Notes under the pieces: generated by a model
What the model was told of the DNA's origin: nothing
What the model saw: only the letters and a program-made list of their open reading frames with translations
Database searches by the model: none
NCBI GenBank assembly: GCA_021498095.1
Contig: JAIZWK010000001.1
Coordinates: 300,001-332,000, forward strand
Length of the DNA stretch: 32,000 bases
Source of the DNA: Candidatus Harpocratesius repetitus
Lineage (GTDB): Archaea; Asgardarchaeota; Lokiarchaeia; Sigyniarchaeales; Promethearchaeaceae
Direction of reading: 5' to 3'
Translations under genes and position numbers: made by a program
Shown: in pieces, positions 15,819 through 19,391 of the stretch
How the letters are laid out: every line of letters begins with the position of its first letter
Numbering within the stretch: the stretch's first letter is position 1

Positions 15819-16921
15819 TTATTCTACTAAAGTTTTTAGTTCTTCTTTTGGAATATTGCTGATTCTAAATTCTGTATCATCCATTAAATCAATCTCATTA
15901 GTATTCAATTCCTCATTTCCAGTATTCTCATCATAATGCATCATTTTGGTAAATTTAATTAGTAAAAAATATACAACTAACGAAATCGAGGGAGATATCA
16001 AGAAAAGCCATATTACAGGAACCATTTCACCAATCATTCCCAAAATTATTAAACCAACTGGATTCATAGCTTTAATGAGGGTGAACATAGTGGCGAATAC
16101 TCTTCCCTGCAAATCTTTTGGAATAGTTGTTTGGAGAACAGATATTAGTTGAGTATCGATATATGCTAGATTAATACCCATCAAAAAACAGATAATAAAG
16201 AACAACCAAAACCACCCGCGAGGAACAAGAGACAATCCTAGAAGCACCACAGAAAGCATCATTCCTGAAATAATCACCGACTTCATTGAGCCTTGCCGTT
16301 TCGATGCCATTAATAGAATAGATCCAAGGATTAATCCCGCTTGAAATAATATTTCCACCCAACTATATTCAGAAGCACCTCCATTATGATATTCCAAGAA
16401 ATTTGTTCAATAGAAAAACTTGCAATCGCGACAGCTCCGATGGCAGGACTTGCGATATTCATCAAAGATGTAAAAATTTGATTCAATGAATTCATAGATT
16501 TAATTTTTTCTTTTGGAACCATTAAGGATGTAATTGAGACAGCAACAGGAAATTGAAATCCTTGACATGTTCCACGGACAGCTAATAGAGCGATTATGTG
16601 CCACAATTGGGCAAGATTTAAATAAAACAAGATGATGAGAACAAATGTTCCCAAAGCCTGAATAAAATCTGCGAGAATCAGCACTATATTTTTATTAACA
16701 CGATCAGAAATCACTCCTGCAAATGGTCCAACTATAATCATTGGAACTATCGAAGCAATAGAAGCAAGGGAGAGAATGAACGAAGACTCTGTTTGAAGTG
16801 TTAAATACCATATAACAGCAAATGATACAATGTTTGAGCCGATCAATGAAATTATTTGGGAAATCCAAATCCATATATATCCATGAAATGATTTCTTAGA
16901 GATTTTATCATAATTTATCAT
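15819..16921 (-). pseudogene. Disrupted MFS transporter (DHA3/MefA-like), split by an internal deletion plus frameshift near 16400
   Basis: ORF 16331-16921 carries TM1-5 (WISQIISLIGS, GPFAGVISDR); ORF 15819-16397 in another frame carries TM8-12 (DLQGRVF). TM6-7 are not present at the junction. Confidence 0.75.
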
Positions 16922-17108: not shown

Positions 17109-17144
17109 AAAAGAAAGAAATAAGTTTTGAAAAGAAAGAAATAA
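17109..17144. repeat. Direct repeat AAAAGAAAGAAATAA x2 (21-bp period); U-rich terminator-like on the minus strand
   Basis: Copies at 17109-17123 and 17130-17144, followed by a TATA-like TTTTAAATA at 17145-17153. Confidence 0.6.
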
Positions 17145-17174
17145 TTTTAAATAACTTAATAAGAATATCTAGTA

Positions 17175-17311
17175 GTGAACAGCTCACTATGAGGTAAAGA
17201 AATTTACCAGCTGATCTGGATTTTAAACACCTTTGCTTAATGGCAACGGTGAATGAATCATAAATTCAGGTGAACAGCTCGCCTTTAAGGCAGACATCTG
17301 CCAGCTGATCT
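17175..17311. ncRNA. Candidate structured ncRNA or cis-element with two covarying ~43-nt units and two intervening hairpins
   Basis: Units GTGAACAGCTC...AGCTGATCT at 17175-17217 and 17270-17311; inner stems GGTAAA/TTTACC versus GGCAGA/TCTGCC show two compensatory pair changes. Strand unresolved. Confidence 0.6.
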
Positions 17312-17391
17312 TATTCTTTTTTTATTTCTTCTTTCACAAAAACAATTACAGAGCATTATGATTCAATTTTATATCAATTTGAATTCAACAA

Positions 17392-17994
17392 TTAATTTTT
17401 AGGAATAAAACACTTCCGCAAGAGCGATTTTGAAACTTCACGATAAGAATTACAGATAACAACAAGATCCCATGATTTAAGTTTTTCAAAATATAATAAT
17501 TCAACTATCTTTCCAAGTGAAATTAATCGCTTAACAAGTGGAATAAAATCACCATCACTACTAACCAAAATCCCCACATCATAAACATCTTCATAAGCAT
17601 CACTTAACATATCTACTGCAATTGAAATATCATCACCTTTTATTGTGCCCTTTGATCTCTGAATGACAGCGTTTGAATTTTCAATTCGATATTTAGTTTT
17701 GCAAAGAATTACATTTATTTTTTCTTTTTTTAAGCGAGCAAAGAATTTTTGTTGTTCTTGATAAATAGTAGCATTTCTTTGTTGCTTAAAGGGTGTTGAA
17801 TAGTAATTAATTCCTATAAGTTGTCGATTCTTTGTAGTTATCTTTCTCCCCATTTTTGCAAAATCAAACTGAAATTCTCTAAATTTTTTACCCATACTTT
17901 TCAAACCGTGATAAAAATTAGGCTCATCAATGTAGATTTTGACTCGAGGTCTATTTAAATGGACATTTTCACCCAATTCATTTTGCTTTTGCAT
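17392..17994 (-). CDS. NYN domain (LabA/DUF88, PIN-like fold) putative RNase
   Basis: IYIDEPNF, KGDDISIAVDML and LVSSDGDFIPLV...GKIVE acidic motifs. Confidence 0.9.
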   Translation of the reverse strand: MQKQNELGENVHLNRPRVKIYIDEPNFYHGLKSMGKKFREFQFDFAKMGRKITTKNRQLIGINYYSTPFKQQRNATIYQEQQKFFARLKKEKINVILCKTKYRIENSNAVIQRSKGTIKGDDISIAVDMLSDAYEDVYDVGILVSSDGDFIPLVKRLISLGKIVELLYFEKLKSWDLVVICNSYREVSKSLLRKCFIPKN

Positions 17995-18092: not shown

Positions 18093-19391
18093 TCAATGAT
18101 TATTTCTTAATAACCAAATCGGTAAAGGTTGGATATTTATTTTTATGTTTTCAACAGTTTCCTGGCTGATAGCATCTTTTGTTAAAATTGTTCCTTCTTT
18201 TTTATTGAAAATTTTCGCAACAGCAATTATCCCTTGAATTTCTCTTTTTTTTGTCTTTGGATTTGAAATATCCCATGATACTTGAATTAATTCCTTAATA
18301 TCGGATCCTTTTGATATTAAAAAGTCAACTTCATGATTTTTATCTTTCCAATAAAAAATATCCCTGTTAAAGGTAGATAATTGATTATAAACAATATTTT
18401 CTGCCATCTTTCCAAAATCAGCTGTTGTCTTAAATGACATTGAATTTCTTAAACCATTATCAATTACATAAATTTTTTTATTTCTTCTAAATTGAGTACG
18501 CATTTTATAAGAAAATAAATCTAACCTTGAAATAAGAAAGGATTGTTCTAAATATCCAATATATTTTTCTAATGTAGAAATATGAATTCCCAAATCATTT
18601 GATATTTTCCTATACGAAAATTCTCTTGTGAAATTTGTCATTAAGTATTTAGTTAGCATTTTTATTTTATTCATATCAACTCTAAAACGAGAAGATATAT
18701 CACGGGAAATAATGTCATTAACTAAACCAGAATTTATTTGTTGCTGCATATATTCTTTTTTATCAATTATTTCTGGAAAACCTCCATTTTTCATGAATTT
18801 GAAAAAATAATGATTTAATTTGGATTGATTATTTAGTAGATAATTCAAATTGAAATTTTTCCAATTTTGAGAGTGGAGATACTCATAAAAATTGAAGGGT
18901 TTTAATTGAAATGTGATATGTCTCCCACTTAAAACTCTTCCAATATCTTCAGAAAGCAATGAAGCACTGGAACCAGACACATAAATCTGTTTCACTAACT
19001 TCTGATCATAAATTTTTCGAACCCAACGTTCCCAATTTGATTTTTCTTGCACTTCATCTAAAAAGAGATATTGAACATCAGGACTTAGCTGAAAAATTGT
19101 ATTTAGAATATCAACAAAATCCGATGTATTAATACTTATATCATCAAAATTGATAAATAGAATTGATTGTGGTGATATACCTGTTGAGATTAAATAATGA
19201 ATAATTTGATACATCAAAGTCGTTTTTCCAGATCTTCTAATTCCAATTATATCTTTTATATGAGTGATTTGAAAGTAATCTTGAATTTGGTCAAAAATCT
19301 CCCTTTTTATTTTCGATCCTAATATCCAATCGTTTGCCCACCAAGGATTCCAAGATCTTATAGCTTGAGATAATTGATCCAGATTTATCAC
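18093..19391 (-). CDS. AAA+ ATPase with C-terminal DUF4143 (restriction-endonuclease-like) domain
   Basis: Walker A GIRRSGKTT, Walker B FLDEVQE, SGSSA...GR, GGFPE, KIYVIDNGL, EVDFL...IQVS; GTG start. Confidence 0.9.
   Translation of the reverse strand: MINLDQLSQAIRSWNPWWANDWILGSKIKREIFDQIQDYFQITHIKDIIGIRRSGKTTLMYQIIHYLISTGISPQSILFINFDDISINTSDFVDILNTIFQLSPDVQYLFLDEVQEKSNWERWVRKIYDQKLVKQIYVSGSSASLLSEDIGRVLSGRHITFQLKPFNFYEYLHSQNWKNFNLNYLLNNQSKLNHYFFKFMKNGGFPEIIDKKEYMQQQINSGLVNDIISRDISSRFRVDMNKIKMLTKYLMTNFTREFSYRKISNDLGIHISTLEKYIGYLEQSFLISRLDLFSYKMRTQFRRNKKIYVIDNGLRNSMSFKTTADFGKMAENIVYNQLSTFNRDIFYWKDKNHEVDFLISKGSDIKELIQVSWDISNPKTKKREIQGIIAVAKIFNKKEGTILTKDAISQETVENIKINIQPLPIWLLRNNH

Follow-up and report, generated by a model that had tools for sequence, protein, structure and literature searches.

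A Small RNA Gene Predicted Beside an NYN Nuclease Gene

The window, a 32,000-nucleotide stretch of the Candidatus Harpocratesius repetitus genome, carries on its minus strand a gene for a LabA-like NYN-domain nuclease of 200 amino acids (17392–17994). Convergent with this gene, on the plus strand, lies a compact structured block whose 3′ end is 80 nt away and for which the nuclease is the proposed protein partner. A previous examination of the letters alone, referred to in the following as the sequence-only reading, had described two tandem units here. Both were found when the sequence was read, at 17177–17216 and 17272–17310 (+), with the form GAACAGCTC...AGCTGATC and a 95-nt period between the two modules. 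The composite two-unit pattern did not occur in any of 100 shuffled versions of the window, and in the whole 4.36-Mb single-contig genome these two sites were its only matches.

The whole gene, designated type A, is predicted to span ≈142 nt (17171–17312, +) and consists of module 1 (17174..17214), a structured linker (17217..17268) and module 2 (17269..17308); full-length matches to our covariance model, R1, cover the same extent. A predicted archaeal promoter at 17132–17154 (+) comprises a purine-rich BRE-like stretch and the TATA box TTTTAAATAA at 17145–17154, ≈26 bp ahead of the first module. Given the usual TATA-to-start spacing of ≈26 bp, transcription is predicted to start at about 17172–17176. 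The promoter block AAGAAATAnCTTTAAATAAC is kept at an equal distance in the related genomes G013, G007, G002 and G011 and in the metagenome loci. At the other end, the conserved block runs into an oligo-T tract (17311–17335, +), a predicted archaeal terminator with a T7 run at 17317–17323, and in the aligned sequences every relative has GATCTT followed by a T-rich tract. The GC fraction of the block is 0.35–0.38, compared to 0.21–0.27 in the flanks. The TATA-like box, the downstream T-tract and the higher GC content had all been pointed out in the sequence-only reading. A conserved BRE/TATA block together with a T tract is characteristic of an independent archaeal transcription unit, here on the plus strand, and 17171–17312 appears to be a single, self-standing structured RNA gene.

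The promoter region of the window also contains a tandem duplication of ≈19–21 bp, AAAGAAAGAAATAA(G/T)TTT, at 17110–17149 (+), by which the BRE/TATA-like block is present twice; the relatives have a single copy. Beside the promoter, two overlapping minus-strand ORFs (15819–16397 and 16331–16921; 192 and 196 aa) each correspond to half of an MFS_1/MFS_3 transporter. The syntenic transporter is whole (453–463 aa) on contigs L076 and L082, and the window's copy looks broken by a frameshift.

Folding and Covariation

Module 1 begins with a 5′ hairpin, S1 (17174–17178/17184–17188), in which pair 6–16 is UA, CG or UG among the relatives. Within its loop, ACAGC (17179–17183), the bases CAGC (17180–17183) pair with GCUG at 17210–17213, and these pairs are invariant. 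Between the two lies P2, a variable hairpin with a GAAA loop (17193–17198/17203–17208), where pair 23–38 changes between GC and AU. In the linker, P3 (17217–17221/17264–17268), which includes a G-U pair, encloses the hairpin P3b (17228–17236/17243–17251), where pair 65–75 changes between AU and GC. Module 2 repeats the design of module 1, with its own S1 (17269–17273/17279–17283), which contains a U-G pair and has UG or UA at pair 102–112, a loop segment CAGC (17275–17278) that pairs with the 3′ segment GCUG (17304–17307), and the hairpin P4 (17289–17293/17298–17302), with a change between UA and CG at pair 122–131.

Pairing was tested on an alignment of seven distinct sequences (A6). At the predicted pairs, 98.6% of the alignment cells were paired, compared to 24–41% when the partners were slid against each other, and two-sided changes were found in four pairs. 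Across the 7–8 relatives, P2, P3b and P4 have one two-sided, compensatory change each. The sequence-only reading had proposed selection on structure from the two compensatory swaps between the inner stems of the two units; these are seen directly in the sequence, and the compensatory changes in the homologues bear the proposal out. Of the two linker hairpins that it drew, the one corresponding to P3b gained support from the AU-to-GC change. The other, TGAAT/ATTCA, fared worse: a pair is lost in two of the seven relatives, and it competes with P3, which is intact in all seven and shows a GU-to-AU change in G002.

The plus-strand RNA has a fold z-score of −3.7. The minus strand is also stable (z-score −3.1), but the G-U pair of P3 and the U-G pair of module 2 would become A·C mismatches there, which identifies the plus strand as the functional one. 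The sequence-only reading had left the choice between a standalone plus-strand RNA and the 3′ UTR of the NYN mRNA. The conserved BRE/TATA block, the T tract and the G-U pairs specific to the plus strand favor the standalone RNA over the 3′ UTR.

The 8-bp outer stem that had been drawn around each unit is indeed invariant in all relatives. Since it never varies, covariation neither supports nor refutes it, and it competes with S1, formed by the first five bases of each module (AGUGA/GGUGA) and the bases UCACU/UCRCC just past ACAGC. Over nine distinct unit variants, three of the five S1 pairs have two-sided changes (AU to GC; UA to CG, with UG also present; and AU to GC). S1, together with P4, is the minimum-energy fold of module 2 folded alone, and S1 is also the minimum-energy fold for L084_B, one of the type B relatives described below. 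The covariation of this competing 5′ hairpin suggests an H-type pseudoknot in each module, with a hairpin embedded in it; the alternative is a nested stem with a one-sided bulge. The fold preferred by RNAalifold, in turn, is a "swapped" four-way junction that joins the 5′ strand of module 1 to the 3′ strand of module 2, an exchange that only the identity of the modules' strands allows. The strands common to the nested, swapped and pseudoknotted folds are invariant and do not discriminate among the three. The local hairpins, P3 and the CAGC/GCUG pairing are the solid parts of the predicted structure. Overall, the proposal of a novel structured RNA stands, the fold as originally drawn needs revision, and the connection to the NYN gene is stronger than mere position would imply, as described below.

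Homologues and Distribution

Homologues were recovered with BLAST and with R1, which was built from alignment A2. Full-length homologues of 17171–17312 were found in G013, G007 and G002 and on contigs L063 (identical to L078-80), L081, L076 and L166, the contigs being from metagenomes or NCBI and L076 coming from a Candidatus Harpocratesius assembly. They share 82–85% identity and score 146–173 bits with R1. In the R1 search, a full copy was present in 4 of the 151 genomes of the order, with partial copies elsewhere: G011 has promoter plus module 1, and so does a second copy in G013.

A pattern scan of 400 Asgard genomes of the phylum gave nothing convincing outside family f1; the seven other matches were about as many as a control pattern gave. 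The scan of viral contigs yielded no match to the RNA, and that of metagenomes yielded two true and two chance matches. The four full copies among 151 genomes and the lack of convincing matches outside f1 among 400 point to the RNA being a narrow family specific to one lineage of Loki-type Asgard archaea, with one locus per genome, and not a dispersed repeat. The type A loci come from two genera and represent just 2–3 syntenic contexts, so that part of their adjacency to the NYN gene may be inherited synteny.

Type B Relatives

A second, shorter form, type B, is a one-module RNA with its own TATA box. In G006 it adjoins an NYN gene with 43% identity to that of the window, and on metagenome contig L084 it directly follows an NYN gene of 41% identity that has the same orientation; at both loci the RNA lies directly downstream of the nuclease gene and is co-directional with it. 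Type B shares the core of the modules described above, here consisting of GGUGRAG.AGCYCACC, a short A/U-rich joint, a variable hairpin and CCAGCUGC. After the core come another hairpin, rich in compensatory changes, and a U tract. On GTDB genome contigs, the type B pattern matched G006 itself and 69 chance sites, mostly in GC-rich bacteria, and the type B loci gave no match in Rfam 15. From these likenesses, types A and B are read as two subtypes of one RNA family, previously unannotated.

The window's genome also has an orphan type B copy (G000:C1:2712880-2712964; locus L065 1498–1590, +), located between a CoA-ligase-like gene and rpl10e (uL16/L10e), upstream of the latter. It has 76% identity to the G006 copy, and there is no NYN gene nearby. 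Its housekeeping context implies that the RNA may work without the nuclease.

The NYN Gene and Its Linkage to the RNA

The NYN protein matches Pfam PF01936 (E = 2.8e-19) and PADLOC HEC-09 (3e-20) and keeps the conserved acidic motifs. The closest solved structure is 2qip, a protein of unknown function. Orthologues with at least 64% identity are present in exactly the 4 of 151 genomes that contain the full RNA. At all eight distinct type A loci with enough flanking sequence, the RNA is convergent to the NYN gene and 40–190 nt from its stop codon, while the outer neighbors vary: MFS transporters, enoyl-CoA hydratase (ECH), an ABC ATPase, HepT-MNT and an OLD-like AAA_15 ATPase. An RNA with promoter and T tract adjoins a PF01936 NYN gene at these eight type A loci and at two type B loci. 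Copies of the RNA without NYN do occur (the orphan type B and the partial copies in G011 and G013), but the type A clade of NYN genes was never seen without the RNA.

Outside that clade, no member of the RNA family was found alongside the NYN paralogues with 35–40% identity (family f3) or the second NYN copy of G006, and no recognizable member lies beside the 49%-identical NYN gene on contig L083. In the draft metagenome assemblies G007 and G013, the NYN genes contain one frameshift each and the RNA is intact. These frameshifts may be assembly errors and are not good evidence of the RNA outliving the gene.

Duplexes of the RNA with the NYN mRNA had energies within the range of shuffled controls, giving no indication of antisense pairing. 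The two transcripts are also parted by T tracts, a T5 on the minus strand between the NYN stop codon and the element, and the T7 that ends the plus-strand RNA before it reaches the NYN gene. Both observations argue against cis-antisense control.

Several genes of toxin–antitoxin or defense type occur in the neighborhoods, including HepT-MNT, the OLD-like ATPase, an integrase-like gene and an AAA_14-DUF4143 gene ("PDC-S01"), and a 232-aa neighbor protein belongs to a multicopy family. The region reads as a rearranging island. At the G011 locus (G011:C1:2749400-2758100; L164 1-8700), the partial RNA copy, promoter plus module 1, lies beside an OLD-like AAA_15 gene, followed by a 211-aa gene of unknown function, a 412-aa gene with a weak phage-integrase SAM-like match, and MNT-HepT. 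Then comes an N-terminal fragment of enoyl-CoA hydratase, with the rest of the hydratase gene ≈4 kb further on. This order suggests that the RNA gene was broken by an insertion or rearrangement.

In the window, the AAA_14-DUF4143 ATPase gene (18093–19391, −; PADLOC candidate PDC-S01, E = 4e-102) is directly upstream of NYN; it is missing from the other Asgard type A loci. On the bacterial contigs L170–L172, the gene directly after a 36%-identical NYN gene codes for an AAA_14-DUF4143 protein, and a type I restriction-modification methylase gene is adjacent.

Comparison with Known RNA Classes

At the Rfam 15 gathering score there were no matches in the whole window, and at E ≤ 10 none overlapped 17171–17312; the families covered include the hammerhead, twister, pistol, hatchet and HDV-like ribozymes, riboswitches and snoRNAs. 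ARAGORN found no tRNA or tRNA-like genes in the window. The element thus matches no Rfam family or tRNA, in keeping with the sequence-only reading. The multicopy REP/MITE repeat against which the sequence-only reading had set its proposal was not borne out, since the exact motif occurs at one locus in the 4.36-Mb genome and degenerate patterns add one type B copy. Hammerhead, pistol and HDV-like ribozymes, H/ACA and C/D RNAs and K-turns were ruled out by reading the sequence and by Rfam.

In box C/D RNAs, the C box RUGAUGA and the D box CUGA form tandem sheared G·A pairs next to a 3-nt bulge. In archaea, L7Ae recognizes K-turns of the box C/D and H/ACA guide sRNAs. Like these guide sRNAs, the element is small, archaeal, GC-richer than its surroundings and apparently equipped with its own promoter, and it contains a CUGA word. 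Unlike them, it has no RUGAUGA box, tandem sheared G·A pairs, ACA box or two-sided pocket and matches no snoRNA model. A K-turn-like GA/GA core that might bind L7Ae had been suggested. The sequence does not permit tandem G·A pairs in register: the 5′ strand is GUGAACA, its sole pairing register leaves a single A·A, and there was no match to a C/D model.

In the preQ1-II riboswitch, an H-type pseudoknot carries an extra hairpin within loop 3. If S1 forms, the modules would share this topology, with a 5′ hairpin, a loop-to-3′ pairing and a hairpin between them. The likeness is one of topology only: there is no Rfam match, neither a downstream gene nor a ribosome-binding site is involved, and the conserved nucleotides are unrelated.

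The closest functional parallel is found in the type III toxin–antitoxin and abortive-infection systems, ToxIN, CptIN and TenpIN (PMC5086642, PMC3401426). Their toxins are the endoribonucleases ToxN/AbiQ, CptN and TenpN, and the antitoxin is an RNA of short, direct tandem repeats encoded immediately upstream on the same strand, with a terminator between the two. The toxin, which is toxic alone, cleaves the repeat RNA into units that bind and inhibit it. As in these systems, a small, repeated RNA, capable of forming pseudoknots and with its own transcription signals, lies directly beside a lone endoribonuclease gene, has a patchy distribution among toxin–antitoxin and defense genes, and includes copies that lack the nuclease. 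The differences are considerable. The partner has an NYN (PIN-like) fold, with matches to PADLOC HEC-09 and NYN rather than ToxN, and with 2qip as its closest structure. The RNA is downstream, convergent (type A) or co-directional (type B), rather than upstream and co-transcribed. Instead of tight 34–45-nt tandem repeats, there are two diverged modules of ≈40 nt, 95 nt apart, or only one. The host is an archaeon. Since the toxin family and the upstream tandem-repeat layout both differ, we do not assign the locus to the type III class, and the comparison is that the RNA may work like a type III RNA antitoxin, not that it is one.

Proposed Role of the RNA and Alternative Explanations

Taken together, these results make it very likely that the block is a real structured sRNA gene that is genetically coupled to the NYN gene. 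The RNA is probably a dedicated partner of the nuclease. Our preferred reading, by analogy with the type III systems, is that it inhibits the nuclease in the manner of an antitoxin, to which we give a probability of roughly 0.4. In such a two-component module, the folded RNA would bind the neighboring LabA-like NYN endonuclease, probably with one protomer per module, and would keep the bound nuclease inactive or restrict the targets that it cuts; loss or turnover of the RNA would free the nuclease. That the RNA binds the nuclease and restrains or directs it is suggested by its folded, modular form, by a transcription unit of its own with strong signals and by the strict linkage to a lone endonuclease gene. 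The patchy spread among toxin–antitoxin and defense genes points the same way, as does the occurrence in the clade of RNA without nuclease and never the reverse. From the sequence we infer transcription of the RNA, its binding to the protein, inhibition, and toxicity or a role in defense. The accessible part of a survey of the PIN superfamily lists the function of the NYN group as unknown and describes no RNA partner, and states that none of the group had been studied for putative nuclease function (PMC5499597). As far as that part of the survey goes, the LabA-like NYN proteins are without demonstrated toxicity, which counts against the antitoxin reading (PMC5499597). Our search of the literature found no description of an NYN–RNA module.

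The partnership could also be of another kind, in which the NYN protein uses the RNA as a cofactor or guide, or cuts it as a preferred substrate; the protein would process the two-module precursor or pick its targets via the single-stranded joints ACUAUGA and GCCUUUAA. The genetic linkage is equally compatible with this explanation, and the conservation of the joints between the helices and the RNA's own strong promoter signals fit it as well. A guide, on the other hand, is difficult to reconcile with joints that hardly vary among genomes, and are therefore not variable guide sequences, or with pairing to the NYN mRNA no stronger than that of shuffled RNA; as a whole, we consider the explanation unlikely. 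A similarly low probability attaches to an independent, trans-acting regulatory or protein-sponging sRNA, whose position next to NYN would be synteny inherited within one small archaeal family. The orphan type B copy between the CoA-ligase-like gene and rpl10e, with no NYN gene near it, speaks for such an RNA, and the two genera and 2–3 contexts of type A, as well as the intact RNA beside the interrupted NYN frames of G007 and G013 (perhaps assembly errors), are consistent with it. However, the RNA–NYN pair stays together while the outer neighbors change, the presence and absence of RNA and NYN are identical over the 151 genomes, and a diverged subtype of the RNA adjoins a diverged NYN clade in another orientation on two further contigs.

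A role of the element in cis in the expression of NYN is very unlikely, whether as a structured minus-strand 3′ UTR or terminator of the NYN mRNA or as a convergent antisense or roadblock transcript. Its location 80 nt past the NYN stop codon and the stability of the minus-strand fold (z-score −3.1) would suit such a role, but the G-U pairs turn into A·C mismatches on that strand, the BRE/TATA block is conserved on the plus strand, and T tracts lie between the two transcripts (T5 after the NYN stop codon, T7 at the end of the RNA). Moreover, type B is co-directional with NYN and has its own TATA box, and the antisense complementarity does not exceed that of shuffles. The least probable explanation is an element that works at the DNA level or moves, such as a REP/MITE-like repeat or a recombination or attachment site, or else a riboswitch or self-cleaving ribozyme belonging to a known class. 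Mobility is suggested by the partial copies (promoter plus module 1) at the rearrangement junction by the integrase-like gene in G011, and again in G013, and the pseudoknot-plus-hairpin topology resembles that of some riboswitches. Against this, there is one locus per genome plus a single type B copy, and the compensatory changes and G-U pairs indicate selection at the RNA level; a search as permissive as E ≤ 10 brought up no Rfam family, and no gene lies downstream on the plus strand for a riboswitch to control.

The LabA-like NYN nucleases comprise thousands of proteins. Extending the inhibitor reading to all of them, we tentatively propose, as a possibility short of an even chance, that they are generally RNA–protein pairs in which a dedicated, fast-evolving small RNA gates the nuclease. 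They would then constitute a new type III-like RNA-antitoxin or defense class that reaches the Asgard archaea, and the locus in the window would be a two-module, pseudoknotted variant with a convergent RNA. To our knowledge, the non-coding RNAs of Asgard archaea are almost unexplored. If the RNA gates the nuclease, RNA-antitoxin systems would gain both a toxin fold and a gene layout new to them, and the Asgard archaea their first such candidate. Even under another mechanism, RNA libraries would be extended by a new family of structured RNAs that comprises two subtypes.

Other Elements Associated with NYN Genes

On the bacterial contigs L170-172, a sigma-70-type promoter, two strong hairpins and a T tract are located right before the NYN gene (L170 1108–1195, +). 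A Methanoregula contig, L167, has the same arrangement of promoter, two-hairpin RNA and T tract before NYN (1100–1195, +) and has the 5′ word GUAUUACUUC in common with L170. Like the Asgard RNA, these predicted RNAs adjoin a PF01936 NYN gene, contain two structured elements and come with a promoter of their own and a T tract; they, too, gave no match in Rfam. The recurrence of this layout in two unrelated lineages counts in favor of a partnership between nuclease and RNA. These RNAs differ in being upstream, on the same strand and of a plain two-hairpin form, and, a short word apart, no homology to the Asgard RNA in sequence or structure could be established. In the g6 genomes (G007, G013 and G011), the type A RNA is immediately preceded by this UAUUACU-like word, AUAUUACU, which is similar to GUAUUACUUC and is degenerate in the window. 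The likeness of the two words could reflect shared ancestry, a promoter element or chance.

Contig L085, a short metagenome contig, contains two copies of a different two-hairpin element (750–830 and 1235–1310; GTTCGC..GCGAAC and AAATTTGGG..CCCAAATTT) near a 45%-identical NYN gene; in sequence, this element is unrelated to the type A/B family. Finally, at five loci of the sister family with 35–40%-identical NYN paralogues (L053, L054, L056, L058 and L059), a conserved, AT-rich, hairpin-like word, GTAATAGTTAAAATTATTAC, lies ≈90 nt upstream of NYN; it may represent either these paralogues' own NYN-associated RNA or a promoter element.
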